From a virus (Duplodnaviria > Caudoviricetes), in the IMG/VR virus record IMGVR_UViG_3300025930_000003, positions 1-55,630 of that record: 55,630 bases of DNA. One strand, written 5' to 3'. A model generated the notes under the pieces. That model was not told the origin of the DNA. It saw nothing but the letters and a program-made list of their open reading frames with translations, and made no database searches. Shown piece after piece: positions 28,138-50,792 of the stretch (its first letter is position 1; every line of letters begins with the position of its first letter). Position numbers and translations under genes: made by a program.

Positions 28138-28153
28138 AGCACAATATGTGCCA
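28138..28153 (-). promoter_or_regulatory. Sigma54-type promoter for the capsid operon
   Basis: Minus strand TGGCACATATTGTGCT (GG-N10-GC), intergenic, 150 nt upstream of the capsid gene. Confidence 0.75.
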
Positions 28154-28169
28154 AGATTCTAAACTAATT

Positions 28170-28200
28170 AGAAACTACCTTGTATTATTTAAATACAAGG
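28170..28200 (-). terminator. Hairpin after the scaffold gene
   Basis: CCTTGTATT/AATACAAGG stem then TAGTTTCT on the minus strand. Confidence 0.4.
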
Positions 28201-28270
28201 CAGATCAAGAACAATAAAACAACTATAGCTATAAAAAGATGTGCGGCAGCATCAACAAACTCATCATCTT

Positions 28271-29347
28271 TCATACATCCTGTGCTCGTCTATTTTGAAA
28301 GTCAGAATATTTAACTCCACCATTTCCTGCTTTACCAGCTACAAACTCACCTTTTCTAGGTTGAGCATTGTTAGCATCTGTTTTAATACCTTTTAGCTTA
28401 TTGTTTTCATCCTGTAGTTTCTTAACCCTACCAAGTAGAATAGCGTTATTGGCTGCGGTCATAGCAAGCAAAGTGGAGACTGGATTATCTCTGAAAGATG
28501 CGGGCAAAGCATCTAATACTGCTTTCTGAATAGCTTGTGTCGGATGATCTTTAGCTGTATATCCTGGAAAGTATTTCTCTACCGCTCCAGTTACAACTGC
28601 TAGATCAGCTTTATAAGTAGAATCATAGCTGTCAATATAGTTCTTTAGTTTCTTTCCAGCCTCATAAGACTGCTCTCTAGCAAATTGTAGCTGATCTCCA
28701 ATAAATACTTCCGCTTCCGCATTTGATTCTTTAGGCTCAGATAAAACAAGCTTTCCAGTTTTTGGATCCATATCTAAATCTTGCCATTTTTCTCCTCTAG
28801 AAACTTTAGCAGCTTGTGTAGCCCAATGAGATTTAATTCTCTCTGCTAAATTGTAGTCGCTAGATGAAGTCTTATATTCTTTTGTAAGAGTAAAAGCTTC
28901 TGGATGACCAAAGATAGAAGCAGGCTCTTTTCCTTTATTCTGCTTTAGTTGTTCATTTTCTGTCTTAAGAGCTTTATGTTCTAGATAAAGAGGCTTTAGC
29001 TTATTAAAGCTCTCTATAGACATATTCTTAAAGATTGGTCTATCTTCTTCAGGAATATCATCAAGAACTCTTGGAGCGGTCTTTGTTTTAGTTTTTCCTG
29101 GATCAGCTTCAATTTTAGTCTGATCAAATTCTACACCACGATCTTTTAAGAAATCTTGGAAATTTACTTCTTTATCTTCTTTCTTCTCGCGAGTAGTTTC
29201 TAGTTGCTCATGATCTTCACCAGTTTTCTCAATTTCTGTAGAAACTTCTTCAGTCTTTTGTTCTACAGCTTCTCCTGCTGGAGTTTCTGCTCCTTCAAAA
29301 TCTACCTTTGGCTCTACAAACTGATTCTCTGCTGGTTCATCTGGCAT
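28271..29347 (-). CDS. Capsid scaffolding protein
   Basis: Acidic N-terminus, coiled coils, between portal and capsid genes. Confidence 0.65.
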   Translation of the reverse strand: MPDEPAENQFVEPKVDFEGAETPAGEAVEQKTEEVSTEIEKTGEDHEQLETTREKKEDKEVNFQDFLKDRGVEFDQTKIEADPGKTKTKTAPRVLDDIPEEDRPIFKNMSIESFNKLKPLYLEHKALKTENEQLKQNKGKEPASIFGHPEAFTLTKEYKTSSSDYNLAERIKSHWATQAAKVSRGEKWQDLDMDPKTGKLVLSEPKESNAEAEVFIGDQLQFAREQSYEAGKKLKNYIDSYDSTYKADLAVVTGAVEKYFPGYTAKDHPTQAIQKAVLDALPASFRDNPVSTLLAMTAANNAILLGRVKKLQDENNKLKGIKTDANNAQPRKGEFVAGKAGNGGVKYSDFQNRRAQDV

Positions 29348-29348
29348 A

Positions 29349-29651
29349 TTATATTCCTAGTGTTGATTGTTTATTTTCTGTTATATATTCTATCACCTCT
29401 CTAATACCAATAGAGATATGAAGAAATCTATTTGTTGAATTATCTGAATTTAACCTACTTGAATTACGTGCAGCATTCAAAAGTTCTAATTCTCTCCGCG
29501 CGAGATAAATTAATAGGTTCTGTGTCTTTTCCATCGTTAACCAAGTTTTTAGTTCTTCTTCTGCAATAAGTTTTGCATGTTCATCCTTAGGCTCTGTCTC
29601 TATATCAGCGACGCGGCCAGACATTCTATCATATGCTCTTACAGTGCTCAT
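29349..29651 (-). CDS. Small helical protein after the portal
   Basis: Typical podovirus position. Confidence 0.6.
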   Translation of the reverse strand: MSTVRAYDRMSGRVADIETEPKDEHAKLIAEEELKTWLTMEKTQNLLIYLARRELELLNAARNSSRLNSDNSTNRFLHISIGIREVIEYITENKQSTLGI

Positions 29652-31531: not shown

Positions 31532-31534
31532 AAA

Positions 31535-32292: not shown

Positions 32293-32533
32293 ATAGGTCT
32301 TTCTGAATTTCTAATTGAAACCAAAACATTCTAACACCAAAAACATATATTCCTATCAAGCGGCTTGGCTTATGTATTCCAAATGGATATTGATGAAGCG
32401 GATGGAAAGTAAATAAAATTTCAAGTTTCTTTAAAGAAATCTTAAAAAGTAAATAACAAAGTCTCGTCTCTAGTTTATTTTTCTTTCCATCCCATCTGGC
32501 GTAAGATAAATCGTATGGATCAATTAAGTTCAT
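32267..32533 (-). CDS. Hypothetical protein
   Basis: Coupled to TerL stop. Confidence 0.5.
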   Translation of the reverse strand: MNLIDPYDLSYARWDGKKNKLETRLCYLLFKISLKKLEILFTFHPLHQYPFGIHKPSRLIGIYVFGVRMFWFQLEIQKDLYEKRRTSW

Positions 32534-34245
32534 TGGTTCCTCATTATAGCGTTTAATGACATATGTGCTCTATTTCTTTTTCTGTGCATTTTTAAAACTT
32601 GACCATTCCAAACAAAAGCTTCTTCTATTTCTTCAGCAGTCATTTTCTTAGAATCATGTTTAGTATCCTTTATCTCTTCTGTAATGAAAGCATCTAGAAG
32701 ATCAGTAACCTTTATATTGGAAAAGGCTAAAACAGCTGCATCAGCTCTATCAGGTGAAGGCAATCCCTCAGAAAGCATTTCTGGCTTACTCTGCAAACAT
32801 AGTTTATCTATTCCAGCAATAGAATCTTTATATTTCCTAGATGCAAGTTGTGAATAAAGTTTCTCATCATCCAGTAGAATTATTACTCCCTCTTCAACAA
32901 GTCTATTAAACTTAGCCCAAATCTCTGCTCCGCGATTACGATATTGCTTTTTGTTCTTAGGCGCAGACTGGTTTAAAACTCGATTGATAGACCATCCTTT
33001 ACGCCTTAAAATATCAATTACTGCGCGGCCAACTCCACCGTCATCTGCATAAATATAGTCATTTACTTTAGGAACTTTTTGTTCTTCGAAAGATTTCTCT
33101 ATAAAATCTGCTAGCAAAGTAGCATCTTTGATGCGGCAAGTAATCTGCTTTGTTTGTCTGTTACCAATAAAGTAACTTATGCAAGTTTCATCTCCATTAG
33201 TAGACAAAGCTATATCAAGACCAATTCTAGGTTGAGTTCCAAACTCTTTAACCAGTTTCAGACGAATCTTAGTGCGAAGCTTTGCTAATCTTTCTGATCC
33301 AATTACATATTTACCGTCGATAAAAGTAAATAAAGCAAGCCACTTAGATCTAAAATAAGGTGAATACTCACCAAGTTCTTTTAAGTCAGCATCAAATTCC
33401 TCACGTGATTGATGTGGACAATCGAAGAAAGTAACTCTCCTCTTATAAGGCCAATCGTTGAAAGCATTATGAAAATCCCCTAAAGGAGCACCAGGAGTGG
33501 AAACATAGATTAAATAGTTGAATCCAGTGCATCGCTTTAAAGCTCTGAAGATTTCTGGTGCGACAGATTTAGCTTCATTTACTATAATGGCCATTTCCGC
33601 GTTAGGCTCTAATGGGTGATAGCCTTCTGCTTTACCCTCTTCGTCAGTTGCAAATAAGATAATTTCTGATCCAGAAAGGTGACATACTATATGTCTTTTA
33701 TTTACTTTGAGAATAGGAGCACCTAGATTCTGTATGGCCCAGTTGTTTATTTTTTCGCAAAGTCCGCTTATGTATGCTTCTGTTTGATTTGTTAATTGAA
33801 CGCCAGAAGAGGAAGTAATAATCATTCTGCTTCTACGTTTCGTTGTAATAAACCAGACAGCAAAAGGTGCGATTACAAAAGCATCTTTTCCAGATCCATT
33901 TGCGGCACATAGACAATATTTGTATGGATGTTTTGAAGAGCATTTAGCTCTAGAAAGCTGCTCTCCAGTCTCTATCTGCCAAGGATGAAGAGTATCAATT
34001 CCTTCGTTAATATTTTTATCAAAGAAAGCCAAGAGTTCTATACAAGTCTCGAATCCATTTAAAGTAGTCCAATCCTCTTGTATTTTAGTTGGAGCCTCAT
34101 CATTGAAATATTCAGGCTTTGGAGTATTTTCTGTCGCGGCCGACTCTTTAATAGGTTCAGCTTTAGAAAAGAACTTTTCAGTAGAGTCTATAATCTTAGA
34201 AGAAGATTTAGATTCTACAAAGAAATCTGGATTATCCAATAACAT
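32530..34245 (-). CDS. terL: Terminase large subunit
   Basis: HPWQ, Walker A AANGSGKD, IIVNEA, STP, nuclease GLDIA/DDGGVG/SPDRADA. Confidence 0.9.
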   Translation of the reverse strand: MLLDNPDFFVESKSSSKIIDSTEKFFSKAEPIKESAATENTPKPEYFNDEAPTKIQEDWTTLNGFETCIELLAFFDKNINEGIDTLHPWQIETGEQLSRAKCSSKHPYKYCLCAANGSGKDAFVIAPFAVWFITTKRRSRMIITSSSGVQLTNQTEAYISGLCEKINNWAIQNLGAPILKVNKRHIVCHLSGSEIILFATDEEGKAEGYHPLEPNAEMAIIVNEAKSVAPEIFRALKRCTGFNYLIYVSTPGAPLGDFHNAFNDWPYKRRVTFFDCPHQSREEFDADLKELGEYSPYFRSKWLALFTFIDGKYVIGSERLAKLRTKIRLKLVKEFGTQPRIGLDIALSTNGDETCISYFIGNRQTKQITCRIKDATLLADFIEKSFEEQKVPKVNDYIYADDGGVGRAVIDILRRKGWSINRVLNQSAPKNKKQYRNRGAEIWAKFNRLVEEGVIILLDDEKLYSQLASRKYKDSIAGIDKLCLQSKPEMLSEGLPSPDRADAAVLAFSNIKVTDLLDAFITEEIKDTKHDSKKMTAEEIEEAFVWNGQVLKMHRKRNRAHMSLNAIMRNQ

Positions 34246-35987: not shown

Positions 35988-36028
35988 ATAGCGAATGAGT
36001 TAAATGGTAGCGCGGGGAGTTTGGTAGC

Positions 36029-36422: not shown

Positions 36423-36854
36423 TTAGTCAGCTAAATGTTCAATCTCAGCAGGAATATCTATTACTTTAGATTTCCCTTTCTCAATGGCCTTTTTCATATT
36501 CACAAGCTGGTCATTTAGTAAGGTAACATTGACATTTAGATTCTTTACATGTTGAAGATCATGTCGTCCTTTGTTCTCGTTTATGACAAATTTAGCCGCG
36601 CGGAATGCTACGTTTTCGTTTTCAGCAAACACAAGAGAAGTAATTCTCTGCTTTGCCATCTCAAATTCATCTTGTGTGAAAAGAGAAGGATTTTTCTTAA
36701 CTTCGTTTCTGAATTTAACTGAGGAACCCATTAGAACCATTTTAACAGAATGTTCGTCAACAGAAAGAGCCTCAGCAATCTGATCTGGTTGCATATCAGA
36801 TTTGTCGTATAGCTCTTTGATCTGGACGTTTAACATTTCAGGAAGCGGATTCAT
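36423..36854 (-). CDS. Putative terminase small subunit
   Basis: N-terminal HTH (PDQIAEAL), AAKF helix, C-terminal NVNV strand; near the start of the late arm. Confidence 0.55.
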   Translation of the reverse strand: MNPLPEMLNVQIKELYDKSDMQPDQIAEALSVDEHSVKMVLMGSSVKFRNEVKKNPSLFTQDEFEMAKQRITSLVFAENENVAFRAAKFVINENKGRHDLQHVKNLNVNVTLLNDQLVNMKKAIEKGKSKVIDIPAEIEHLAD

Positions 36855-36877: not shown

Positions 36878-37003
36878 TTAATTTTCTTTTATGGTTGGCG
36901 CTACTTTAGTTTCTTCGTCTGATAGAAGTTGATTTAGTTTAGCACGCTTTAATATTTCTAAAGCAGCTTCCGAAAGTTTCTCTGATAAATCAAACATTTT
37001 CAT
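36878..37003 (-). CDS. 41-aa ORF, probably leaderless
   Basis: ATG falls at the predicted +1 of the promoter at 37014-37029. Confidence 0.45.
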   Translation of the reverse strand: MKMFDLSEKLSEAALEILKRAKLNQLLSDEETKVAPTIKEN

Positions 37004-37013
37004 GTTTTACTAG

Positions 37014-37029
37014 AGCAATTTCTATGCCA
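37014..37029 (-). promoter_or_regulatory. Sigma54-type promoter for the late arm
   Basis: Minus strand TGGCATAGAAATTGCT. Confidence 0.8.
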
Positions 37030-37154: not shown

Positions 37155-37158
37155 CTCT

Positions 37159-37352
37159 GTAAGTCGTTGTTCATTAAGGAGTTACGTTGTTGACTAAAAG
37201 GTCAAATTGATTTCTCTTCTGTAAAGCCTTGGTAATGAAGGACTTGTAACTTAGTAAGTGTTTGCTCACTCGCATCTGTCACTCAAATGTATTGCAAATG
37301 CACGATTCCCGATATATTCCTGAAAGTATATCGTTGATTACCAACATGTTAC
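37159..37352. promoter_or_regulatory. Three 27-bp imperfect palindromes GTAA-N4-TTG-N5-CAA-N4-TTAC (IHF-like halves)
   Basis: Copies at 37159-37185, 37221-37247, 37326-37352; half site near 37254. Confidence 0.55.
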
Positions 37353-37356
37353 AGCT

Positions 37357-37372
37357 TGGCATCCCTGGTGCT
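37357..37372 (+). promoter_or_regulatory. Sigma54-type promoter for the first plus-arm gene
   Basis: TGGCATCCCTGGTGCT (GG-N10-GC). Confidence 0.65.
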
Positions 37373-37551: not shown

Positions 37552-37992
37552 ATGTCAAATACTACAACCGCAGAAGTTGTGAAAGCAGCCGTCAAAGTTG
37601 GCTGGTTTGCTGGTGCATTGTCGGGTTTTCAACGTGTCGTTTTCCGCGATTTGTGTTATGCGGGATTCGATAAGCAGATTGCCCACAAGGTATCAATGGA
37701 CTACGGCAGTCAGCTTGGCAGCGCGATGCGGAATGATGACAACATCAAAACCGCAGTTGGCAAAGCCACAAAAGCTGGTTTGGCCAAAATGTCCGGCGCT
37801 TTTCATGACAAGCTCATCATGCACAATAGCATGGCAGTTTATCGCGTGGTGCAAACCATTAGCGACCTTTATCAAAAGGAAAAACTGTTGAAATCGTACG
37901 AGATCAATCTGGACACCCTGTCTGACAGGTTGCAGGATTATCTCAGCGAGTGCAAAGTGTGGGCATCGGAACAAACTTGGGAAACCAAGTAA
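37552..37992 (+). CDS. First early gene, GC-rich, unknown function
   Basis: AGGAG at 37540 before ATG 37552; own promoter and terminator. Confidence 0.75.
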   Translation: MSNTTTAEVVKAAVKVGWFAGALSGFQRVVFRDLCYAGFDKQIAHKVSMDYGSQLGSAMRNDDNIKTAVGKATKAGLAKMSGAFHDKLIMHNSMAVYRVVQTISDLYQKEKLLKSYEINLDTLSDRLQDYLSECKVWASEQTWETK

Positions 37993-37998: not shown

Positions 37999-38036
37999 AG
38001 TGTGTAGAGATACCCTGTCTCTACACACTCCTTTTT
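37999..38036 (+). terminator. Intrinsic terminator
   Basis: 12-bp stem AGTGTGTAGAGA/TCTCTACACACT plus CCTTTTT. Confidence 0.8.
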
Positions 38037-38345
38037 CAGTCCGTTATTTGAAATCTTATCAATCTGACTTTAGACTCTAAAGAACGAGAGATAAACCTAT
38101 AAAAAGAGCTTAACATATTCCGCACAAGCTAATAGAAAAGATAGCCCACAAGAGTATCAAATCTAGTGCAAAGGAAATGCCTCAAGCGATTATCCCTTAT
38201 AATTAGGAGTATCGCACATAAGAGATTAGGATAGCAACCTAGAATAAATACCAAGAGAATTGCAAAGGATGAAAGGAAAATAAAGTAATCCTGAGCGAAT
38301 CTCTCTTTCAGATATGAAACATTCATGTTTGAATAAGGAGATTCA

Positions 38346-38651
38346 ATGCCATACATAAAATGCGCTAATAAAAAGTGTGATAATCATGCACAACATAAAG
38401 GATTGTGCACTCCATGTTTTAGAGAATCCCAGAATATTAACATTCCAGTCTCTAAACATGAACAGACAAGAAGAGAAAATGCTCGTCTAATGAAGTTCTG
38501 GGATGCGAACAAGAAAGCACCACAATTTGAGCAGATTTCAAAGAGAGCTAGCAAGAAAGGAATAAGCGGATTCCACAAGGGACTATATATGTCTCAAAGA
38601 GGAATAAGCAAGTTTGGTGATCTCCAACAAGATGTGCCTTTTCCTGAATAA
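38346..38651 (+). CDS. Zinc-finger-like early protein
   Basis: C-x4-C...C-x-x-C; AAGGAG RBS. Confidence 0.65.
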   Translation: MPYIKCANKKCDNHAQHKGLCTPCFRESQNINIPVSKHEQTRRENARLMKFWDANKKAPQFEQISKRASKKGISGFHKGLYMSQRGISKFGDLQQDVPFPE

Positions 38652-38661
38652 TTAAAAAGAA

Positions 38662-38677
38662 TGGCATAAAAAATGCT
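38662..38677 (+). promoter_or_regulatory. Sigma54-type promoter
   Basis: TGGCATAAAAAATGCT, intergenic just after a stop codon. Confidence 0.65.
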
Positions 38678-38938
38678 TCAGAAAAGGACGTGGGCAATTC
38701 AATTAACATTCAACTTATTTAACACTATGATTATTCTATTCTTTGTAGCAATACTTTTTTGGTTAGCTCTTGATTATAAGGAGTAAATTTGTTGCTCTTT
38801 ATTTTAATCTTTGTGCCTTCAAATCAACTAGATATGTTTTTTATTATACTTATATATATAATAATATAATAAAATATTAAGGTATTTAGAGAAAGAAAAA
38901 TTCACTCCTTCCAGTATAACTAAGCATTTAAAAACTCT

Positions 38939-39999: not shown

Positions 40000-40028
40000 T
40001 CGCACAAGAACTTAACACAACAAACAAT

Positions 40029-40208: not shown

Positions 40209-40338
40209 TTTTCTCCGCGCATTACTTTTTATCGAACTCGACGCAATTGATAGAGCAATTTCACAGATGAAAAACAAGAAGCGGGCTAAAATGATTAGAA
40301 GAGCATTTAAAAAACAATGGAAATTTAGCCTAAGATAA
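40192..40338 (+). CDS. Small basic early protein (48 aa, not in ORF track)
   Basis: MKTLNDFLRALLF...; fills gap. Confidence 0.45.
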   Translation: MKTLNDFLRALLFIELDAIDRAISQMKNKKRAKMIRRAFKKQWKFSLR

Positions 40339-40378
40339 TTTCCGCACAAATCAATTGTGCGAAAAAGAAAGGAAACAT

Positions 40379-40732
40379 ATGACTGAAAGAAAAATGGCAA
40401 AAGAGATAGCAGATATTCTATCTAACGAACAAGTAACAAAATACGGTGGAACCATTAAGATAACTGGCGCGGAGTCAGTTAAAGAGACCGCACAAGAACT
40501 TTCTTCTCCAACTGTTGAAAAACCACAAGAGCCTAAATATAAGGTTCTTTTCGAATATGACGAACAAGCAGGCAAATGGGAAGTCTATTGTTATGGTGCG
40601 AAAGATGAATATGAAGCACTAGATATGTTTTGTGCGGTTGTTGTTACAGCTAGAAGTGCGATTCCTAGCCAGAACTACAACAAAGCAATCCTAGAGAATG
40701 GCCGATATAAGATAAGTGTAGGTGTTTTATGA
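40379..40732 (+). CDS. Early hypothetical protein
   Basis: AAGGA before ATG 40379. Confidence 0.65.
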   Translation: MTERKMAKEIADILSNEQVTKYGGTIKITGAESVKETAQELSSPTVEKPQEPKYKVLFEYDEQAGKWEVYCYGAKDEYEALDMFCAVVVTARSAIPSQNYNKAILENGRYKISVGVL

Positions 40733-40877
40733 CATTATATGATCTTAAGTTAGAAGAGAAGTATCTTCTAGATAGATTTGTTCGCACAAGTCCGGACAAC
40801 TTAGAAACAATAAATAGAATCTGGAAAAGACTCAGAAAAGTAAAAGAACTAATCGAAGAGAAAATGAAAGTAGCCAA

Positions 40878-41060
40878 ATGAAAACATGGAATCTATCGGA
40901 GAATGGAATCTTAACACTAGAAGAGAATAATGCAGCTATGATTGTGTCTATTGTTCTCTCTAACGAGCAGAAAGCTAAAATACATAAGGAAGTTGATTTA
41001 GCACTAAGAAGAGAGATTGCAAGACAAAGAGAGACATTTAATACTGTCCTTAAACATTGA
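40878..41060 (+). CDS. Early hypothetical protein
   Basis: Packed ORF. Confidence 0.55.
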   Translation: MKTWNLSENGILTLEENNAAMIVSIVLSNEQKAKIHKEVDLALRREIARQRETFNTVLKH

Positions 41061-41072
41061 CCACACAAGAAC

Positions 41073-41285
41073 ATGAAAAAGAAACTACCAATCTATATTG
41101 TTTGGATTCTATTCAATAATAGATATACTTACTTTTCCGCACACTCCTGTTTGAAGGAAGCGACTTCATTCTCAAATAAGTTCCTAAATAGAGATATTCT
41201 ATCTAAAGTTACAGAACATTGGCTAGAACTGGAAAATATTCTTGAGACAACAGATGGAGATTTAATCAAGAATCTAAATCTATGA
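41073..41285 (+). CDS. Early hypothetical protein
   Basis: Packed ORF. Confidence 0.55.
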   Translation: MKKKLPIYIVWILFNNRYTYFSAHSCLKEATSFSNKFLNRDILSKVTEHWLELENILETTDGDLIKNLNL

Positions 41286-41473
41286 AAAAGAAATACATGA
41301 TAGTTATGTTTGATACTGAAACAGGTTTAGTTAAACATCCAGAAGAAATATGGGATAACTATAGACATGTTAGTGCTAGCTTTAAAGACTTATATTCTTC
41401 AGAAGAGTCCGCACTAGAACATGCAACTGAACATGGATTAAGCTATTTCTCTATTATTCCGGTCTACTATTAA
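41282..41473 (+). CDS. Early hypothetical protein
   Basis: ATGA-coupled ORF. Confidence 0.55.
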   Translation: MKKKYMIVMFDTETGLVKHPEEIWDNYRHVSASFKDLYSSEESALEHATEHGLSYFSIIPVYY

Positions 41474-41726
41474 CCGCACAAAGAGACTATTCCGCACAAG
41501 AGCTTTCTTGCACAAAAAGAACAACAAAACAAACATATGAAAAAACATCACGAAGACCTAAAAAGTCTAGTTAAAACTGGACAAATAACAGCAAAAGAAG
41601 CTCTAGATAGATTAATTTCTAGAGCTAAAGATAGCAAACAAGCATCTGAATCAATGACCGCCAGATGGTTAAGAGCTAGAATTTTGACTCACGCAGACAA
41701 CTATAGAACATAGAAAGGAGGTAAAT

Positions 41727-41870
41727 ATGATTCGCCGTATTACATCATTCGGTTATATCTGGTTTAAAGAAGGCAAGCAAGTTGCTTGTCAAGTTGGACA
41801 CAATTGGAATGGAGAGACTCTCTCCATTCAAGAGAAGCGTATTCTTAGGAAACTAGCAAGTAAGAGCTAA
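41727..41870 (+). CDS. 47-aa early protein (not in ORF track)
   Basis: Strong AAGGAGGT RBS; followed by a hairpin. Confidence 0.6.
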   Translation: MIRRITSFGYIWFKEGKQVACQVGHNWNGETLSIQEKRILRKLASKS

Positions 41871-41875
41871 AATGT

Positions 41876-41917
41876 CTGGAGCGGTAACTTCTTACAAACT
41901 ACCGCTTCAGCAATTTT
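41876..41917 (+). terminator. Terminator-like hairpin
   Basis: CTGGAGCGGTA/TACCGCTTCAG then CAATTTT. Confidence 0.5.
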
Positions 41918-41951
41918 AACTCATACCGCACAAGTCAACTATAGAAACATT

Positions 41952-42134
41952 ATGTATAGATTCATTCTTCAATACATTATAGTATCTAGAGAATATGGTT
42001 TCAGACCATATTTTTATGCACTTACTTTCTGTAATAGAATCTCTCTAGAGAATTATAAACAAGATAACACAGTAGCTTTCTATCAATATGATTTAACAGC
42101 GGAAGAGATCGGTCAATTACTAGGAGGAAACTAA
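41952..42134 (+). CDS. Early hypothetical protein
   Basis: 60-aa ORF. Confidence 0.5.
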   Translation: MYRFILQYIIVSREYGFRPYFYALTFCNRISLENYKQDNTVAFYQYDLTAEEIGQLLGGN

Positions 42135-42233
42135 TATGTATAACTTCATTCACAAATATAAAGATCAAGTATTTCTATCTTGGCAAGATGATCTATGGGA
42201 ATGTTGGATTGATGTGCTTTCAGAATGTGGTGA

Positions 42234-42542
42234 ATGGATGACAACAGAAGAAGTAGGACAATACCTTGGAGGAAACTAAAAATGATAAGCAAAGAACTAG
42301 AGATGGCTATAGTTGTTCGCTATAGGGAAATAACACCAAAAGAACAAGCAGAAGAGCTTTTTGACTTCGCACAAAAGCTTACTGAAATAATATCTTCTCA
42401 CGCAACAGAGAAGAAATATTCATCTGCTTCTATGGTTACTTTAATGTATCTTGTTAGCGAAACATTTCATGAACAAGCTAGAGAAAAGATAGAGAAGAAC
42501 GCGGTAGAACTATACAAGAAAATACTAGAAGGAAACAAATGA
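42234..42542 (+). CDS. Early hypothetical protein
   Basis: ORF; true start probably the internal ATG after GGAGG. Confidence 0.55.
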   Translation: MDDNRRSRTIPWRKLKMISKELEMAIVVRYREITPKEQAEELFDFAQKLTEIISSHATEKKYSSASMVTLMYLVSETFHEQAREKIEKNAVELYKKILEGNK

Positions 42543-42769
42543 TAACAGAAGCACATAAACTACAATCCGCACAAATCTTTCTTACTCTTCCAAAAGAGAG
42601 ACAAGATTTAATAGACAACTTCTACAATAAGTTGGGCAAAGAGATACTAGACTTTGTTAGGGAGAACAAGTTAGTAACAGCAGAAATAATTGTTCTTCTA
42701 GATACTTTATCAAGCAAATTTTACGAAGCTCTAGAAGATGATTATAAAGAACATATAAAGAAAAGTTAG
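42539..42769 (+). CDS. Early hypothetical protein
   Basis: ATGA-coupled ORF. Confidence 0.55.
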   Translation: MITEAHKLQSAQIFLTLPKERQDLIDNFYNKLGKEILDFVRENKLVTAEIIVLLDTLSSKFYEALEDDYKEHIKKS

Positions 42770-42788
42770 AGTAAAGATAAAGACCACT

Positions 42789-42804
42789 TGGCACAGTTCT
42801 TGCT
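42789..42804 (+). promoter_or_regulatory. Sigma54 promoter (consensus match)
   Basis: TGGCACAGTTCTTGCT, intergenic. Confidence 0.85.
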
Positions 42805-42958
42805 TACATGGGTCTATCAATTTGCACTTCAAATATTAAAAAGAATGATTTAATTTCCAAAAGGAAAACAGAACCAGTTAAAATTCTCCGCGCGAACATT
42901 TTTAATTGGTTCTGCAACAAAACAAACAAGTAGTTCGCGTAGAAAAGAAAGAAATCCT

Positions 42959-43588
42959 ATGAAGGAATTCGAAGTCAAAGTAAAGAAAGAGATAGAGATA
43001 GAGAAGGAGGTTGACGGTAAGAAAGTTAAGGAGAAAGAGACAGTTGAAACTCCTGTCGCGATTGCGCCTATTAAGGTGCAGAAAGGAAAAGGTAGGGGTT
43101 CAGAATATCTAGCTCCTAAGAACGTCAGCACATTAACATTGAAAGATTTGCTTGCAATGTTTAGTGAAGCAGATCTCGTCAATAAGTTGTTCCGTCCTAA
43201 ATTCAAGCAGTTTTGTGCTACCATCTCGGCGGAAGCCGGGTATGAAGCAGGAAAAAGAACTGCAAGTGATGTGAAAGCGGCTAAAAAGGAAGGAAAAATC
43301 ATCCAAGAATGTGGAATCCAAGATGAGGAGAAATTCTACGACGCATTTAGTCGTATGTTTTCCTCTCTTTCTGCTAGAGGTGAAACTGTTGCTGGATTAA
43401 GCAGACAACAGAATGAACTTCTTGCAGAATTTGGTGATCTGGATGAAAATGCTCCAGACTTCGCAGTTCGTTCTGCTGCGATCTTCAGGGAAATCAAGAA
43501 GATCCGTGAAGCACTTGCTGAAAAGAACACTGAATCAGAAGGTGATGATTCAGAAGAAGAAGGAAAACCAGAAGCGGTTGCTGCTTAA
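42959..43588 (+). CDS. Monocistronic charged protein, unknown function
   Basis: Bracketed by a consensus sigma54 promoter and a terminator; acidic tail. Confidence 0.8.
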   Translation: MKEFEVKVKKEIEIEKEVDGKKVKEKETVETPVAIAPIKVQKGKGRGSEYLAPKNVSTLTLKDLLAMFSEADLVNKLFRPKFKQFCATISAEAGYEAGKRTASDVKAAKKEGKIIQECGIQDEEKFYDAFSRMFSSLSARGETVAGLSRQQNELLAEFGDLDENAPDFAVRSAAIFREIKKIREALAEKNTESEGDDSEEEGKPEAVAA

Positions 43589-43604
43589 ACATCAGCAAAA
43601 CATT

Positions 43605-43641
43605 GAAAGGGAAGTAATTAATTTTACTTCCCTTTCTTTTT
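43605..43641 (+). terminator. Intrinsic terminator
   Basis: 13-bp stem GAAAGGGAAGTAA/TTACTTCCCTTTC plus T run. Confidence 0.85.
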
Positions 43642-43655
43642 CCTTATTTAAATTT

Positions 43656-43838
43656 ATGTGTATAATATTAGATTTAACACAACAAGTAAGTATTAAAGAC
43701 GGATCAGTAGTAGATCAAGTTAATGTGCGAATTGAAGGCAATTTACAAACATTAACTAAAGATCAAATTGATCTTATAGAAGAAAAGTTAGATTGGGCAA
43801 TAGATATATTAGGTTTAAATAATATAAATAAAAGATAA
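43656..43838 (+). CDS. Hypothetical protein
   Basis: Start placed after the terminator. Confidence 0.5.
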   Translation: MCIILDLTQQVSIKDGSVVDQVNVRIEGNLQTLTKDQIDLIEEKLDWAIDILGLNNINKR

Positions 43839-43839
43839 T

Positions 43840-44286
43840 ATGCCGCACAAGAACTCAGAAAGTATTGGAAAATCATTACATTCTGATGGATTACCGCACA
43901 AAGAAATAGAACATAAGGAAATAGATCCAGAAGGTCTAAAACAAGGACTTGGTAGAATAACTAGAGCTAGACCTTTAACCGAAGAAGAGAAAACTTCTCT
44001 AAAGATAAAGAAACAAATTCTAGATATGGGAAAATCTTTTACCCTAAAAAGTAATTCAACTCCTTTTAGTCCAGCACCAGACAAACCAATTGTTGTTATA
44101 AAAGAAATGCAAGACATTACCGCACCAGAAACTGTAGAGATACAGATAAGATCTGATGCTAAAACAATCTGGATAAACATTGACGGAATCTGTAGACTAA
44201 GAGCTTGCCGAATTAAGAACTTAGTCCTAATTGACGAACATTCTAAAAGAACCATAGTATATCCTACAAATGAAACTAGCACTTGA
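43840..44286 (+). CDS. Hypothetical protein
   Basis: 148-aa ORF. Confidence 0.65.
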   Translation: MPHKNSESIGKSLHSDGLPHKEIEHKEIDPEGLKQGLGRITRARPLTEEEKTSLKIKKQILDMGKSFTLKSNSTPFSPAPDKPIVVIKEMQDITAPETVEIQIRSDAKTIWINIDGICRLRACRIKNLVLIDEHSKRTIVYPTNETST

Positions 44287-44617
44287 AAAATTAGAAAAAT
44301 GGGCAGAATCATTACCAGATGACAAGGTAATTGATTTCTTAGATAATAATAATTGTGTTATCTGTCAATTCATAAGAGATACAACAGGAATGGCCGCATC
44401 TGCTAGTGCTACTAATTTCTATGTATATCCTAGTGGTATTTCTCGTGAAGGAGAAGTTATATCTCGAAGAATAGAGCCAGAAATTATTGAAATATTAATT
44501 AAAGCAAGAAATCCTAGTATTGGTGAATATTCAAATGATATAACAAAAGAAAGACTATTAAACGCAATTAGGAAGGTAAAAAATGAATTTACCACAACTA
44601 ACTCTTCCGCTTCTTGA
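44270..44617 (+). CDS. Hypothetical protein
   Basis: Overlapping ORF. Confidence 0.65.
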   Translation: MKLALEKLEKWAESLPDDKVIDFLDNNNCVICQFIRDTTGMAASASATNFYVYPSGISREGEVISRRIEPEIIEILIKARNPSIGEYSNDITKERLLNAIRKVKNEFTTTNSSAS

Positions 44618-45053
44618 TAAGTTTCTCTCACTTAGCATAGGATATAGAGACTATCTAGAAATAGATGATGAGGGAATTCTTAGTCTAGTTTCTATTATTG
44701 ACAACGAAGAGCAACTTTATCATGTAGAAGGAAAGAAAGTCTACAAGAAAAAAGCTTGGCTAAAAGATCTAGATAGACTCGCTCGTTCTAGAAGAGAACA
44801 TGAAGAACTAATGACAATAAAAGATGCCCGCGTTAGAAAATTAAAGGAGCTACAAATTAGACTTTCAGAAGAATTTGGTGTAGATAAGGACAATGAGATA
44901 ATAATTAAGATGGCTCTCAATATAATTAGGCGCGGCAAAGAGAAAACTGCTAATATGTTAGGGGTTGATATAGATAATGTTCCTACTATGCCAAGCAGCT
45001 ACTATATTCTTGACTATCCAACTACTGATGGAACAATGGAGATTAAACTATGA
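44583..45053 (+). CDS. Hypothetical protein
   Basis: Overlapping ORF. Confidence 0.65.
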   Translation: MNLPQLTLPLLDKFLSLSIGYRDYLEIDDEGILSLVSIIDNEEQLYHVEGKKVYKKKAWLKDLDRLARSRREHEELMTIKDARVRKLKELQIRLSEEFGVDKDNEIIIKMALNIIRRGKEKTANMLGVDIDNVPTMPSSYYILDYPTTDGTMEIKL

Positions 45054-45328
45054 AAAGAGATTGCGGAAATGGAGAATTAGTTCCAGTCAAATATGAAGTT
45101 GTCTATTGTGTTGGCGAACATAGCGATGATGAAATTGTGCTAGAACGTAGAACATTTAATGAAGCTAAAGAAGTTTTTCAATCAAAACTTCCAGAGATAC
45201 AAGCTACTCGTTGTAGTAATCTTAGACTATATGCTCTAGATAAACAGGGATATGCTAATTGTATTATATCTTATACACATTGTAAAAATGGAGAAAAAAC
45301 AATAAATGACCGCACAAATGAATTATGA
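45050..45328 (+). CDS. Hypothetical protein
   Basis: ATGA-coupled ORF. Confidence 0.6.
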   Translation: MKRDCGNGELVPVKYEVVYCVGEHSDDEIVLERRTFNEAKEVFQSKLPEIQATRCSNLRLYALDKQGYANCIISYTHCKNGEKTINDRTNEL

Positions 45329-45504
45329 TAGTAAAAATAACAGTAACTGGTAAAATAGTTTCTGACGAACCTATTGAAGCTCAATTAGAACTACCACCTA
45401 ACTGGAATCCAAACATAAAAGAGGTTTTCATAGTTAAAGGAGCAATATCTAGATTAGTAGACGAACTAAGTGAACATTTCCCTAAAATAAGTGGATAGAC
45501 TATT

Positions 45505-47757
45505 ATGTCAAGAAAAGCTAAAGTAAAAGTAATTACTCTAGAAGATGAGATAAAGAAACTTATTCCTTGTCTTAATCAAGCGAAGTCTAGGTTCTCCTTT
45601 CACAAAGAGGAAAGAACCTATGGCTTTCTCGCACTAAACTTTGGTATAACAATAAAAGATCCAGTTTTAAAGAACAGACCAATAGTCTTTGAAGATATCA
45701 ATTTGTTTCATAGTCAGTTAATAGTTAGATTAAAGGATAAATATGACATCAGAAAATACATCGGTGATAGAAAAGTTGAAGTGCTTGAGGGAAGTAGTGA
45801 GCCACAAGGAGAAATGGGGGGAAATATTGGAATTATCCCCAGCGGAGAAAGAAGCGATACTCCAGAAGCACATGACAGCGAGAATGTTAGTAGAGAAGTA
45901 TCTAGGATTGAAAAGAAAGATGAAGAAGTCAAAGAGATTGATAGCTTCACACTTGAAGAAAGAAATAAAGAAACGGAATCGCACTTTGATTCGATATTTG
46001 TTGCTAAGTGGCCAGATCAGAAAGCTAACTTACTGAAGCAAAAAGATGGTTGTGAGCAACTAGAGACTGCCCGCAAACTTTTTAATGAGATCTGGTATAA
46101 TCTTAAACCAGGTTTCTTGTTAAATGCTCAAACTGGAGCAGGAAAAACTTACATAGTCGGTTCCGTAATAAAGAATCTACTAAATCATGGACTATTAGAG
46201 AAGGCTAGATGTATTAGTCCAATACCGATTGCTTACATTACTAAAACTTCTATTGTAGAACAGACAGAGAATGATGTTCTAAAAGAGGCTTTCAATCTAG
46301 ATGTTGTCAACACAGTTCATGTTTTCAACATAGAGACTCTTCGATCTAAGTTTGGTAAGTTGTTCGTAAAGGAACGAATTAACGTAGTCAATGGACAAGA
46401 GACTATAGAATATGAATGGAATCCTAACATTGTTCCATGTCTCTTTATCTGGGACGAATGTCAGATTCTAGCTAGAGAAGAATCTATTCAGTCCAAGATA
46501 GCACAAGCAGTTAGCAGGGTGAAGAATAAAACTATTATTCAAATCTTTATGTCAGCTACTCCATTTTCCCGCGTTTACGAAGCTAGATGTTTCGCTGTAG
46601 CTACTCATACTACATTCTTTTTCGGTATGGGAGAAGTAGAACTTACTGATAGAAACTGGAAACAGTTCTCTCATCAAATTGCTGCGCCATCAGATCCAAT
46701 GGATTATTGTGAAGCAGCTATTAAGAGATTTGTAGAAAAAATGGATCCTTATATTCTACGAATTAAGAACATAAGGCCAAAACATAGAGCCTTCAATGGT
46801 GTAAGCAAGATATTCTTCAGAACAGACGAAGAGAGGCTTGAATATGAGACAGCTTGGGAACGATATCAAAAAGAGAAAGCGAAGATAGAAGAAGAGTCTC
46901 TTAGGACAGGAGAAGGTTCCTATTTCCAGCTTTTAGCACAATTGACTATTATGAGAAAAGCTGCTGAAAAATGCAGACGTTATCATCTAGCAGAATTTAT
47001 GCACAAAAGTTGGTTAGCTGGTAAAGCTCCTGTATGCGTTGTCGCTTTCAAAGGAACAATTACTGGAGCATATAGAATTCTAGTAGAAGATTATGGTTGG
47101 TGCCGCGACGATGTTTCAATCATTTGGGGTGGTTCAGTAGAGTCAATGAATCTGAAGAAGAAAGTAGGATTGAAGATCAAGAACAATAAAGCTTTCCAGG
47201 AAGCAATGAAGGAAGCGGACATTGATTTACAAGAACTTGGTTTCGATCTAGAGAATCTAGAAGTTAAGACAGAAGAGCAGATAGCTTTTGAGAAGCTACA
47301 TAATCTTCTCACACAAGATCCAGAGTCAAGAGAGAAAGAGAGAATAAGATTCCAGAAGCAGAAATCCAGAGGATTATTCTTAACCTTTAAATCTGGTGGA
47401 GTAGGACTTTCTGCACACCATCAATATCCTGAAGCAAAACAGAGAGAAACACTATTAACTCCTGTCTATTCAGAAAAGGAACTTGTTCAAGGTTTAGGAC
47501 GTTGTCCTAGAATTACTTCTTTAACAGACACATATCAATTCATGTGCTACTATGTAGGAACAATTGAGGAAGCGGTTGCACAAAGAGTTGTTATGAAGTT
47601 GAAGAATCTTAAGCATGTAGTTAAGATGAAAGAGGCTTGGGAAGATATATTTACAGGGAAGAAAGTTCAACTCAAGCAAGATGATGAAGAAACTATGGAT
47701 ATGGTAGATGAATTTGAAGGTGGTAACTCAATGCTAGAATATGTGGAGGAAAAATAA
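45505..47757 (+). CDS. Superfamily 2 helicase
   Basis: AQTGAGKT, DECQ, SATP, SGGVGLS, QGLGR-x-x-R. Confidence 0.85.
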   Translation: MSRKAKVKVITLEDEIKKLIPCLNQAKSRFSFHKEERTYGFLALNFGITIKDPVLKNRPIVFEDINLFHSQLIVRLKDKYDIRKYIGDRKVEVLEGSSEPQGEMGGNIGIIPSGERSDTPEAHDSENVSREVSRIEKKDEEVKEIDSFTLEERNKETESHFDSIFVAKWPDQKANLLKQKDGCEQLETARKLFNEIWYNLKPGFLLNAQTGAGKTYIVGSVIKNLLNHGLLEKARCISPIPIAYITKTSIVEQTENDVLKEAFNLDVVNTVHVFNIETLRSKFGKLFVKERINVVNGQETIEYEWNPNIVPCLFIWDECQILAREESIQSKIAQAVSRVKNKTIIQIFMSATPFSRVYEARCFAVATHTTFFFGMGEVELTDRNWKQFSHQIAAPSDPMDYCEAAIKRFVEKMDPYILRIKNIRPKHRAFNGVSKIFFRTDEERLEYETAWERYQKEKAKIEEESLRTGEGSYFQLLAQLTIMRKAAEKCRRYHLAEFMHKSWLAGKAPVCVVAFKGTITGAYRILVEDYGWCRDDVSIIWGGSVESMNLKKKVGLKIKNNKAFQEAMKEADIDLQELGFDLENLEVKTEEQIAFEKLHNLLTQDPESREKERIRFQKQKSRGLFLTFKSGGVGLSAHHQYPEAKQRETLLTPVYSEKELVQGLGRCPRITSLTDTYQFMCYYVGTIEEAVAQRVVMKLKNLKHVVKMKEAWEDIFTGKKVQLKQDDEETMDMVDEFEGGNSMLEYVEEK

Positions 47758-48229
47758 TATGGCAAAAGTATTAGATAATAAAGAAGTTCTTGATAAAATC
47801 TTATCTAGAATTGTTCCACATCTTAATGGATGTTGGATATATCATGGAACTTTTGATGAATATGGTTATGCTAGAATAAGACATAGATATAAATATTGGA
47901 GAGTTTCTAGATTAATATACAAACTAACCTTTCCTAAACTATATAAAGAAGAATTAAATACTTTACATAAATGTGACAATCCAGCATGTGTTAATCCAGA
48001 ACATTTATTTCAAGGAACTCAGGCTGATAATATAGAAGATATGATAAGTAAAGGCAGACATAGTATAGAGGGTAGAGCTAAAGCATTTTTAACTGAAGAC
48101 CAAGTTAGAGAAATCAGAAGTTTAATTAAACAAGGAGTAAAGCAAATAGATATAGCGAAAAGATTTGATGTAACAGACTCAATTATTTCAAATATAAATA
48201 AGAATAGAATTCATAGAAATGTTATATGA
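47741..48229 (+). CDS. HNH endonuclease with C-terminal HTH
   Basis: GCW, HKCDNPACVNPEHL, NIEDM, IAKRF-x-V. Confidence 0.9.
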   Translation: MWRKNNMAKVLDNKEVLDKILSRIVPHLNGCWIYHGTFDEYGYARIRHRYKYWRVSRLIYKLTFPKLYKEELNTLHKCDNPACVNPEHLFQGTQADNIEDMISKGRHSIEGRAKAFLTEDQVREIRSLIKQGVKQIDIAKRFDVTDSIISNINKNRIHRNVI

Positions 48230-49122
48230 TAACTCAATTTCGTCCAATGTTAGCATACGGTCTTTGTGAGGAAGATTTAAAAAGCTTGAAGTTCCCATTG
48301 ATTCTACAACCTAAGCTTGATGGCGTGCGCTGTTGTATTGTAGAAGGTAAAGCACTATCAAGAAAGCTAAAAAGAATTCCTAATAGATATATTAGAACTA
48401 AACTGGAAGCCTTTAAAAATAAACCACCAGTTTTAATAGATGGTGAGTTGGTTATTCAAGGTAAAACATTTAACGAAATACAATCAGCCATAATGAGTGA
48501 GGATGGAGAACCTAACTTTAGATATATAATCTTTGATGCACTTAATGAATGGAGTAATGAATCTTATATACATAGAAAGCAATTTCTAGATTATAGTCTA
48601 GAATACACAAACAACCTATTCTTTGTTAGTGATGTAACTTTAGATCAGTATGAAAAGCTAGATGAGTGGGAACAATATATTCTAAAAGATGGACATGAAG
48701 GTATCATTTTAAGAGATCCTTTCTCACCATATAAGTTCGGTCGTTCCACTCTAAGAGAACAATCACTTCTAAAATTCAAACGCTTTAACGATTCTGAAGC
48801 GGTAATCATTAGCTCTAATGAACTAATGACAAACTCTAACATACTAGAAACTGACGAACTAGGATATGCTAAACGATCTAGTGCCGCAGCTAACTTAATA
48901 AGAACTTGTCAGCTTGGTAGCTGGACTGTGAAAGACATTAACATTAATTCCAGATTCTATAATGTAGAGTTTAACGTAGGAAGTGGATTTACTTTAGAGC
49001 AAAGAATAAAGTTCTGGAATACAAAACAAGATGGGAAAATAATAACCTATAAGTATCAGGCACATGGAAGTAAAGATAAACCTAGGAGTCCAATTTGGTT
49101 AGGGTTTAGAAAGGATATATGA
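48226..49122 (+). CDS. ATP-dependent DNA ligase
   Basis: PMLA, KLDGVR, DGEL, FD, EGIILR, LLK-x-K, VGSGF. Confidence 0.92.
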   Translation: MITQFRPMLAYGLCEEDLKSLKFPLILQPKLDGVRCCIVEGKALSRKLKRIPNRYIRTKLEAFKNKPPVLIDGELVIQGKTFNEIQSAIMSEDGEPNFRYIIFDALNEWSNESYIHRKQFLDYSLEYTNNLFFVSDVTLDQYEKLDEWEQYILKDGHEGIILRDPFSPYKFGRSTLREQSLLKFKRFNDSEAVIISSNELMTNSNILETDELGYAKRSSAAANLIRTCQLGSWTVKDININSRFYNVEFNVGSGFTLEQRIKFWNTKQDGKIITYKYQAHGSKDKPRSPIWLGFRKDI

Positions 49123-49343
49123 GTGAACTAACAACATGCAATTATTGTAATTTAAGGTGGATAAAAGATAGAGCGAAAAAAGAGAAAAAGAAAGTAACAA
49201 AGCTTCCAACTTCTCAAGGACTTGGTGGATTTGAGATCTTTGTTCATCCAAAAGAGATAGATATAAAGAAACTTTCCAAGAAAGAAAGAACTAAATACTT
49301 CAGCTCTTGGATGTGGGAAATAACAGATCATTGTGTTTGCTAA
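49119..49343 (+). CDS. Small Cys-rich protein
   Basis: CNYC and terminal HCVC. Confidence 0.6.
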
Positions 49344-49350
49344 AAATAAT

Positions 49351-50202
49351 ATGATATACGGAAAAGAGAACTACAAGATGAACAATAACAATGCAGAGTT
49401 GCAGAAAAAGCTTCTAAGAGCAGAAGAACTTCTTAGAAATACAGGAAATGATTCCTATATAAGAGAACTTAAAGAGCAACTTGGTAAGTCGAATACAGAA
49501 CAGTGGCTTAGCAAGTTTGTCACAAAGTCCAATTCGATGACGAAATTGAAGGAGCAAGTTAGAAAGCTAACTCCAATAGATGATCCAGTATTAATATTTG
49601 GTGAAACAGGAACAGGAAAAGAACTATTAGCTCATGCACTTCAAGGAGATAGAAAAGGAGCTTTCGTAGCAATTAATTGTGCTGGATTACCTGCACAGCT
49701 AATGGAAAGTGAACTATTTGGTCATGAGAAAGGATCTTTTACTGGAGCGGTAACTGAAAAGATTGGTCTAATGGAGGAAGCACAAAATGGAACTATATTT
49801 CTAGATGAAATAGGTGATCTTGCAATAGAGATGCAAGCGAAACTTCTAAGAGCAATTCAGGAGAAATCCATTAGAAGAGTTGGAGCGAAAGAAGAAATCG
49901 CCATTAATTGTAGAATTGTTTCTGCAACACATAGAAATCTAGAGGAATGGGTAGAAAAAGATAAGTTTAGAGAGGACTTATTCTACCGCATTAGCACTTT
50001 TGTCTTGAAGCCTACACCGCTTAGGACTAGGTCAGCAGATTTACCTCTAATACTCGCCTATCTTGATAGAGATGAATGCGAGATAGAAGATTATAATGAG
50101 TTCGCAAAGAAGATTGATATAGAAAAACTAAAAGGTAATGTTCGTTCGCTTCAGCAAATCTATCGTAGATTTGTAGTTCTTGGACTTGAACCACATGAAT
50201 AA
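49351..50202 (+). CDS. Sigma54-dependent activator (bEBP AAA+ core) lacking sensor and HTH domains
   Basis: [56 protein letters not shown]; ends about 17 aa later; start uncertain (49351 or 49378). Confidence 0.93.
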
Positions 50203-50205
50203 AAT

Positions 50206-50418
50206 ATGATAAGACTAACAATAGAAATAAATTCAAATCCAGGTATAATTCCTGGATATATTAACTGTAAGAAAGAATCAAGGAAAGCTACAATAATAGA
50301 AGAGGATCTTGAATCTAGAATAAAAGATCTTTGTGAAGCTTTTCTAGCTAGATTTGGTGATCCTCTTGAAAAGGCAAAGAATATGGGACTAATAAAGGAA
50401 ACTAAACAAATCAAATGA
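50206..50418 (+). CDS. Hypothetical protein
   Basis: Packed ORF. Confidence 0.55.
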   Translation: MIRLTIEINSNPGIIPGYINCKKESRKATIIEEDLESRIKDLCEAFLARFGDPLEKAKNMGLIKETKQIK

Positions 50419-50609
50419 ATGCACTATTGCTAGGCCCCTATACAACTGGAGACGAAGCATGTTTTGCTTACCATATCTTTATGAACAAGTGTCATAAAGC
50501 TAACTTAGTAATTCCATCAGAACTTAATTTGACAGAAGAGAAGAAGAAAGAGATAGAAGGAAATATAGATAAGCTAATAGAGAAAGAGAAAAGAACGAAA
50601 TGGAACTGA
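50415..50609 (+). CDS. Hypothetical protein
   Basis: ATGA-coupled ORF. Confidence 0.55.
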   Translation: MNALLLGPYTTGDEACFAYHIFMNKCHKANLVIPSELNLTEEKKKEIEGNIDKLIEKEKRTKWN

Positions 50610-50776
50610 TATGACTGACGAAAGATACCACGATATAATGAACAACGATCTAGAGCTAACTCAAGAAGAATTTAATGAAGGATGGCATTTCTGTTTTGAG
50701 TGGGATGGACTACTTCGTAATAACAAGGAAGAAGATTTCAAATGCACCTGTTTAGAGGATAAAAGTTAAAATAGAA

Positions 50777-50792
50777 TGGCATACTTCTTGCT
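50777..50792 (+). promoter_or_regulatory. Sigma54 promoter for the recombination/replication operon
   Basis: TGGCATACTTCTTGCT, intergenic. Confidence 0.85.

Follow-up and report, generated by a model that had tools for sequence, protein, structure and literature searches.

Six putative sigma-54 promoters and a minimal self-encoded activator in a 55,630-bp tailed phage genome

The virus record IMGVR_UViG_3300025930_000003 is a whole phage genome, 55,630 bp long and bounded by direct terminal repeats, rated 100% complete, and its full length is the window analysed here. Six sites in the window resemble promoters of sigma-54 (RpoN), an alternative sigma factor, and the same genome encodes a short sigma-54 activator of the bacterial enhancer-binding protein (bEBP) family. 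We consider it very likely that the six sites are genuine sigma-54 promoters of an uncultured, tailed soil phage and that they would be opened by the phage’s own, enhancer-independent bEBP. This reading is strongly supported by the number of sites, by their canonical spacing and sequence, by their intergenic and co-oriented position, by the phage bEBP and by the presence of sites at the same junctions in three distant relatives. The sites are placed before the replication genes (50777), the packaging and head genes (37029), the putative capsid and tail genes (28153), two single-gene cassettes (37357 and 42789) and a block of small early open reading frames (ORFs; 38662). For most of its gene programme the phage probably relies on the host’s sigma-54 machinery.

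The sigma-54 promoter consensus is TGGCAC-N5-TTGCW, also written TGGCACG-N4-TTGCW. A sequence-only reading of this DNA had listed six such sites on the two strands, and a pattern search returned each of them at the same coordinates (promoters A to F, Table 1). The pattern TGGCAYNNNNNDTGCT (TGGCAY-N5-DTGCT) occurs exactly six times in the genome, both strands included, compared with a mean of 0.25 and a maximum of 2 in 100 dinucleotide shuffles, none of which reached 6. Loosening the pattern to TGGCA-N7-TGC, which keeps the GG-N10-GC spacing, returned the same six sites and nothing else (mean 0.79, largest count 4 in 200 dinucleotide shuffles). GG and GC are 10 nucleotides (nt) apart in all six, the spacing of the sigma-54 promoter class. 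Other spacers between TGGCA and TGC gave no match (N4, N5), one match (N6) or two (N8), all in coding DNA. The genome holds 60 TGGCA pentamers, 8 of them intergenic, and the earlier statement that those checked outside the six sites lack a correctly spaced GC proved correct.

The six sites had also been described as intergenic and as pointing into the downstream gene, and this holds for every one of them. Intergenic status was judged on a crude ORF map, about 93-94% of which is coding; no site lies within a same-strand ORF of at least 60 amino acids (aa), and downstream of every site, at a distance of 57-262 nt, is a co-oriented ORF. All six are within two mismatches of TGGCAC-N5-TTGCT. At this tolerance 22 matches were found versus 9.8 expected, and the 16 beyond the six sites, almost all of them coding, are roughly at chance level. 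A weight matrix trained solely on nine sites of the relatives and scored on both strands of the phage genome ranked the six sites 1, 2, 3, 4, 6 and 8 among all positions. Rank 5 went to a possible seventh site (Table 1), which is within the chance range and is a candidate only.

To look at conservation, we scanned IMG/VR with the bEBP and obtained six loci, among them three near-complete genomes, G001 (45.1 kb), G002 (49.8 kb) and G003 (48.0 kb), with a G+C content of 42-49%. Their proteins are 30-50% identical overall to those of the window (putative capsid 31-40%, bEBP 47-51%), and they share with it polA, primase, the C-terminus of a giant protein, tail proteins, portal, terminase and helicase. 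TGGCA-N7-TGC occurs 6, 9 and 10 times in G001, G002 and G003, versus 0, 0 and 1 times for a backwards control and shuffle means of 1.4, 1.5 and 2.6. In all four genomes, the window included, the capsid homologue has a site 100-180 nt upstream, and another site stands before the small ORF preceding terminase; tblastn identifies this ORF as a homologue of 36423-36854 in G001 and G002, whereas in G003 the resemblance is by eye only. A third site follows the stop codon of the bEBP ORF by 6-31 nt in the three relatives. In the case of the window, three small ORFs are inserted after the bEBP gene, and promoter F lies 575 nt past its stop. In G002, a gene that follows a site is probably homologous to the one behind promoter E; the match is weak (pairwise E 9e-4), and the acidic C-terminal tails are similar. 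The strict pattern gives 25 sites in the four genomes, 17 of which are outside same-strand ORFs of at least 60 aa. The relatives’ consensus, TGGCAYG-N4-TTGCT, is nearer to the textbook TGGCACG-N4-TTGCW than that of the window.

The phage carries an activator and, by a search for Sigma54_DBD in the phage genome, no sigma-54 gene. The activator matches Sigma54_activat (PF00158) with E values of 6e-63 to 3.5e-65 (212-214 bits, against a curated cut-off of 20.2), and the Pfam AAA+ core covers residues 63-225 of 289. It has Walker A, Walker B, a GSFTGA loop that aligns with the GAFTGA of FlrA and FleQ, an arginine-finger region and the sensor II motif GNVRSL, and it stops 17 residues after the latter. 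Pfam returned no receiver, GAF, PAS or HTH_8 domain for this protein and no family for residues 1-62, the N-termini being variable among relatives; no DNA-binding family was found at E ≤0.01. A bEBP without a helix-turn-helix (HTH) fits the subgroup that has no DNA-binding domain, not the classical enhancer-binding form.

In an alignment of ten bEBP-family sequences, the Walker A, Walker B, FREDL and NVR motifs show little or no variation, the N-termini vary, and every sequence ends within 20 aa of sensor II. The loop reads GAFTGA in seven sequences, GSFTGA in the window, NSFTGA in one and GAFSYA in one, with F kept in 10/10 and T in 9/10. A database search gave at least 8000 homologues. The best 120 of these are 262-359 aa long and have the same domain set; 21 of the 120 are on contigs of 47.9-54.6 kb and none is on a longer contig, the distribution expected if phages of this size carry the family. 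bEBPs 55-74% identical to that of the window (P0002, P0005, P0012 and P0016) are found on contigs of 48-55 kb. At the least, there are hundreds of homologues of the short activator. In a collection of 50,697 phage records, 66 matched the bEBP. Most of the 66 look like cellular contigs filed as phage (annotated prpR, atoC, glnG, zraR or rtcR), and one record, H37, is without annotation; the 11 uncultured faecal ‘Bacteriophage sp.’ and ‘Phage DP’ records among them may be genuine phage bEBPs. A further 80 metagenome loci from the bEBP scan were not used, being cellular bEBPs at 39-49% identity that were drawn in by the universal word ESELFGH.

Several observations weigh against the reading of the six sites as promoters fired by this protein. 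The matrix scan against shuffled sequence that the sequence-only reading had proposed gave a divided result: the six sites rank near the top, and in mononucleotide shuffles the top score averages 12.2, with a mean of 2.5 positions that equal or exceed 9.3, the sixth-best score. The weaker sites, 38662 and 28153, are not separated from chance by matrix score, and it is their exact spacing, location and conservation that distinguish them. Some shuffles of G001 reach its count of 6 (largest 7), and G004, a 28% complete fragment with a 36% identical bEBP, is not enriched (2 sites versus 6 for the control). Eight of the 19 strict sites of the relatives are within same-strand ORFs of at least 60 aa, mostly near their 3’ ends; the next gene is in most cases 200-270 nt away, and these sites may act as internal promoters. 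Nothing corresponding to promoters C and D stands where the early arms of G001 and G002 begin. The bEBP loop is GSFTGA, not GAFTGA. In one rhizosphere metatranscriptome library (X23), contigs match 42879-43556 at ≥99%, inside the predicted promoter E unit, which speaks for the reading, but contigs of an RNA library show neither a start nor an expression level, and DNA can occur in such libraries; between 26000 and 45000 the library otherwise holds only two scraps of 18-19 nt, and absent cover there is no sign of silence. Finally, a host RpoN is an assumption, as scans of genome contigs (terminase; polA alignment) gave no relative.

Our guess is that the host belongs to the Bacteroidota. The guess is based on the Blattabacteriaceae label, the 35% G+C of the phage, its weak use of Shine-Dalgarno sequences and the rhizosphere source, none of which is proof. 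Blattabacteriaceae is the only organism label among the bEBP homologues listed, and it is attached to a 66%-identical bEBP. A Shine-Dalgarno-like word, by a loose criterion, precedes 18 of 88 ORFs, and most of the others have A-rich leaders.

Expression data play no part in the mechanism that we infer, which draws on domain content, the anatomy of the motif and conservation. Host RNA polymerase with host sigma-54 would sit on the six promoters in closed complexes that stay silent. Expressed from the rightward arm, the phage bEBP would form a ring, contact sigma-54 from solution without an enhancer, hydrolyse ATP and open the promoters, and this opening would switch on the replication and virion genes. 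The first bEBP would most likely be synthesised from a host primary-sigma promoter or by read-through from upstream, and the sites at 37357 and 38662 would provide a later boost of its expression.

The sequence-only reading had proposed that sigma-54 serves the early, replication and structural genes alike, and had asked how the first transcripts are then activated. The proposal is an overstatement: most modules are headed by a site, but the block 43657-50769 and the gene 38346-38651 are not. The question is a real one, as the activator’s own block has no site. This block of about 7 kb (helicase, HNH, ligase and bEBP genes) lies behind the strong terminator 43605-43636, and the bEBP gene is its last long gene. 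Since the block, and likewise the early arms of G001 and G002, are not headed by a site, a start that does not depend on sigma-54 is the simplest origin for the first activator. The + strand gene 38346-38651 follows a non-coding stretch of 316 nt and encodes 101 aa with CxxC...CxxC cysteines. Alone among the genes at the head of the rightward arm, this candidate immediate-early gene is preceded by no sigma-54 site. The Bacteroidota -7 box, TAnnTTTG, occurs 81 times versus 64.6 expected. The only well-placed primary-sigma candidates are the two weak ones at 38703-38731 and 38784-38791.

The alternative that survives best is that the first transcripts, too, start at promoters C and D and run through into the bEBP block, fired by a host bEBP that is already active or by an activator carried in the virion and with no primary-sigma promoter. 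Promoters C and D do head the rightward arm in this genome, and sigma-70-like matches are not enriched in the control region (19 versus 23.5 expected); this count and a further one (41 versus 58.3 expected) also support the main reading. The giant virion proteins of the relatives would be of the polyvalent, co-injected kind, according to a weak Atlas lead to the polyvalent-protein domain LPD39, found in 28% of one cluster. An unusually broad use of sigma-54 is predicted for Flavobacteriia in a comparative study (PMC12316311). We nevertheless regard this alternative as unlikely. Strong terminators (37999-38029 and 43605-43636) separate promoters C and E from the bEBP block, the early arms of G001 and G002 start without a site, the two candidate primary-sigma boxes are present, and a bEBP in the virion is an assumption only. 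There is an equally small chance that the broadest version applies, in which the phage and its widespread environmental relatives of 48-55 kb would run the whole cycle, first transcripts included, on host sigma-54 polymerase. This would be a sigma-70-independent strategy with a virion-delivered or hijacked host activator, and the bEBP would also fire every host sigma-54 promoter.

It is less probable still, and in our view very unlikely, that the sites are sigma-54 promoters fired by host bEBPs while the phage bEBP mainly reprogrammes the host’s sigma-54 genes. A bEBP without a DNA-binding domain would, by analogy with FlgR and CtcC, act on any sigma-54 closed complex, those of the host included. 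Phage YuA depends on host sigma-54 (PMC5053324), and the phage records that match the bEBP of the window include none from Pseudomonas. Against this, the bEBP gene and the motif set co-occur, with their relative positions kept, in four of four genomes. Host bEBPs, moreover, normally need enhancer sites of their own, and in a search for an upstream element common to all six promoters nothing was found beyond one 13-mer, shared by the divergent region and the DNA upstream of promoter F. That the motif is instead the site of another factor (a phage regulator or a polymerase specificity factor), or a chance repeat resembling the sigma-54 consensus, is barely credible: most phage proteins have no family match, which leaves room for such a factor, but GG and GC are fixed 10 nt apart around a variable spacer in the window and the relatives, other spacings are absent from intergenic DNA, a protein with a sigma-54-contact loop is co-inherited with the motif, and the chance expectation is 0.25.

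Returning to the reading of the sites as promoters opened by the phage bEBP, the individual units differ in layout. The hairpin at 28175-28203, just upstream of promoter A, would end the packaging and head transcription unit. In a related strain (a DNA contig of run X5), 28128-28269 is swapped for 385 other letters; the swapped stretch comprises promoter A and the preceding hairpin, and one of its edges adjoins the predicted +1 at about 28127. This suggests that the control region has been exchanged as a module. If the C of the GC doublet is counted as -12, the promoter B transcript of the 41-aa ORF would be leaderless. The promoter C and promoter E units look like self-contained cassettes of promoter, gene and terminator. 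The 209-aa protein of the latter is rich in lysine and glutamate at its N-terminus and ends in an acidic tail; a family search with it gave no match. The module behind promoter F contains the exonuclease, the Sak4-like protein, both polA halves, primase and thymidylate synthase.

Two kinds of repeated word were seen. An element of about 24-28 nt is present in the control region at 37156-37183, 37218-37245 and 37331-37354, as two direct copies and one inverted copy, and its 13-mer core recurs exactly at 50636-50648, about 140 nt upstream of promoter F. Genome-wide, with up to two mismatches, the 13-mer has 4 matches versus 1.8 expected, which is not significant; the repeated elements may be sites for a regulator. 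The word YCGCACAA has 19 copies, versus 0.87 expected, and 16 of these are on the + strand of the early arm (38120-45317). The copies lie in coding and non-coding DNA, are strand-specific and often read CCGCACAAG; the word could be an RNA-level or a replication or recombination signal rather than a promoter.

Table 1. Positions in the window of the predicted promoters and of the other features discussed
Feature	Position	Strand	Sequence	Remarks
Promoter A	28138-28153	-	TGGCACATATTGTGCT	Heads the putative capsid gene (428 aa) and, behind it, the tail arm as far as 7040
Predicted +1 of promoter A	about 28127	-		About 12 nt after the GC
Terminator-like hairpin	28175-28203	-		22 nt upstream of promoter A; 12-pair stem, then T-rich tail
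Promoter B	37014-37029	-	TGGCATAGAAATTGCT	Heads 36878-37003, then 143-aa gene 36423-36854, on to terminase 32530-34245
Predicted +1 of promoter B	about 37003	-		A of the ATG of 41-aa ORF 36878-37003
Promoter C	37357-37372	+	TGGCATCCCTGGTGCT	Heads single 146-aa gene 37552-37992; no counterpart found in relatives
Terminator hairpin	37999-38029			Strong hairpin; closes the promoter C unit
Promoter D	38662-38677	+	TGGCATAAAAAATGCT	262 nt 5’ of small early ORF block 38939-42769; weakest -12 box
Candidate primary-sigma promoter, weak	38703-38731		TTAACA-17-TATGAT	
Candidate primary-sigma box, weak	38784-38791		TAAATTTG	
Promoter E	42789-42804	+	TGGCACAGTTCTTGCT	Perfect consensus match; heads single 209-aa gene 42959-43588
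Box	42817-42826	+	TCAATTTGCA	About +3 to +12 of promoter E
Terminator-like hairpin	43605-43636	bidirectional		13-pair stem, found on both strands; closes the promoter E cassette
Promoter F	50777-50792	+	TGGCATACTTCTTGCT	Opens the replication/recombination module, 50849 across the genome end to 6831
Box, second copy	50804-50813	+	TCAATTTGCA	About +2 to +11 of promoter F
Possible seventh site, weak	22912-22926	-	TGGTATGAAAATTGC	GG-N10-GC kept, C of TGGCA lost; junction of genes 22899-23327 and 21443-22915
Sigma-54 activator (bEBP) gene	49333-50202	+		289 aa; AAA+ core only; PF00158
Putative capsid gene	26702-27988	-		428 aa; first gene behind promoter A
Leftward arm	37003 down to 7040	-		Terminase, tail-collar/tail-fibre protein, 2449-aa giant protein
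Rightward arm	37480 across the genome end to 6831	+		Many small ORFs, SNF2-type helicase, exonuclease, Sak4-like protein, split polA, primase, thymidylate synthase

The phage genome is about 35% G+C throughout, has terminal repeats of 99 bp and contains no tRNA genes over its 55,630 bp. Its genes are organised as two arms, one leftward and one rightward (Table 1); the split polA label comes from a homology table against the relatives and not from a family search. Most virion proteins and the first genes 3’ of the promoters have no PHROG or Pfam family match, and terminase has a weak one (Terminase_6C, E 2.4e-4). The sequence-only reading called 26702-27988 the capsid gene. A weak Atlas lead to Phage_capsid_3 favours this label, which is unproven; an AlphaFold model built from a four-sequence input was of low confidence (mean pLDDT, the predicted local distance difference test score, of 36). 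No record in the phage collection matched the protein, and a pattern query with it gave no match in IMG/VR. Since most virion proteins are without a PHROG or Pfam match and the putative capsid is without one in the phage collection, the lineage is a poorly known one.

Each of the three relatives has a homologue, of 1758-2652 aa, of the giant 2449-aa protein (7040-14389, - strand), and conservation is confined to the C-terminal 630-740 residues. Searches of PDB, Pfam and PHROG with the giant protein gave no match. A role as a virion RNA polymerase was considered and dropped as unsupported rather than disproved, the protein having neither a D-x-D-x-D motif nor a match in those databases.

The phage is present in DNA runs labelled rhizosphere metagenome (14 rows with a word share of at least 0.2) and occurs in many rhizosphere metagenomes. 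Both halves of a private sigma-54 circuit, the minimal activator and the promoters that match it, appear to be present in a whole lineage of phages. If this is true, it would be a new early-to-late switch, in which silent closed complexes await one ATPase, and the virus could turn on the entire sigma-54 regulon of its host at once. The bEBP would be a compact, natural, enhancer-independent activator that could be used with its cognate promoters as an orthogonal expression switch, and the bootstrapping question would become directly testable.

Phages redirect host RNA polymerase in three main ways, by their own sigma factors, by anti-sigma or ADP-ribosylating proteins and by their own polymerases. 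We found no description of a phage with a bona fide bEBP and a sigma-54 promoter set in the literature searched, which mostly excluded subscription journals and wholly excluded supplements. The tailed Pseudomonas aeruginosa phage YuA (and M6; original work, Ceyssens 2008) needs host sigma-54 for its development and has sigma-54-type promoters in the late region (PMC5053324, PMC10914365). Use of sigma-54 by phages is called rare in PMC5053324, where YuA is cited for it. In PMC10914365, one sigma-54-like promoter of YuA is confirmed among sigma-70-like and phage-specific ones; YuA thus uses sigma-70 promoters and a phage-specific motif, whereas the phage of the window has sites before most of its modules and encodes the activator itself. 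There was no Pseudomonas phage among the 66 bEBP-matching records of the collection, or any match to the putative capsid, which suggests that YuA is not a relative and lacks such a bEBP.

Among cellular bEBPs, Helicobacter pylori FlgR, Chlamydia CtcC and Rhodobacter FleT have no DNA-binding domain; they are chromosomal and are thought to activate from solution without enhancers. They share with the phage bEBP the AAA+ sigma-54-interaction core, a GAFTGA-type loop and the absence of a Fis-type HTH. However, FlgR and CtcC keep a receiver domain, whereas the phage protein has about 60 unassigned N-terminal residues and is virus-borne with its own promoter set. The best solved matches to it are the AAA+ cores of FlrA, FleQ, NtrC1, ZraR and PspF. 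The cores of PspF, FlrA, FleQ and NtrC1 match over residues 48-285 (E 1e-43 to 6e-56; FlrA, FleQ and NtrC1 at 1e-51 to 6e-56) and share Walker A, Walker B, the loop, the R-finger region and sensor II with it. At full length these four cellular proteins have a C-terminal HTH and, in all but PspF, a sensor domain, and neither was found in the phage bEBP.

Two T4-type systems complete the comparison. Htm (Gp204) of Mosigvirus AV110, described in a 2026 preprint, is an AAA+ protein of a T4-like phage and is structurally bEBP-like. According to the preprint it has no GAFTGA loop or motif and an altered Walker B, and no phage sigma-54 promoter set is described; the bEBP of the window, unlike Htm, is a bona fide member of PF00158 with the loop. 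In T4 late transcription, which uses gp55, gp33 and gp45, a phage factor redirects the host core polymerase to the late promoter class. T4 thus brings its own sigma, with a sliding clamp as activator, whereas the phage of the window would borrow host sigma-54 and bring the ATPase only.

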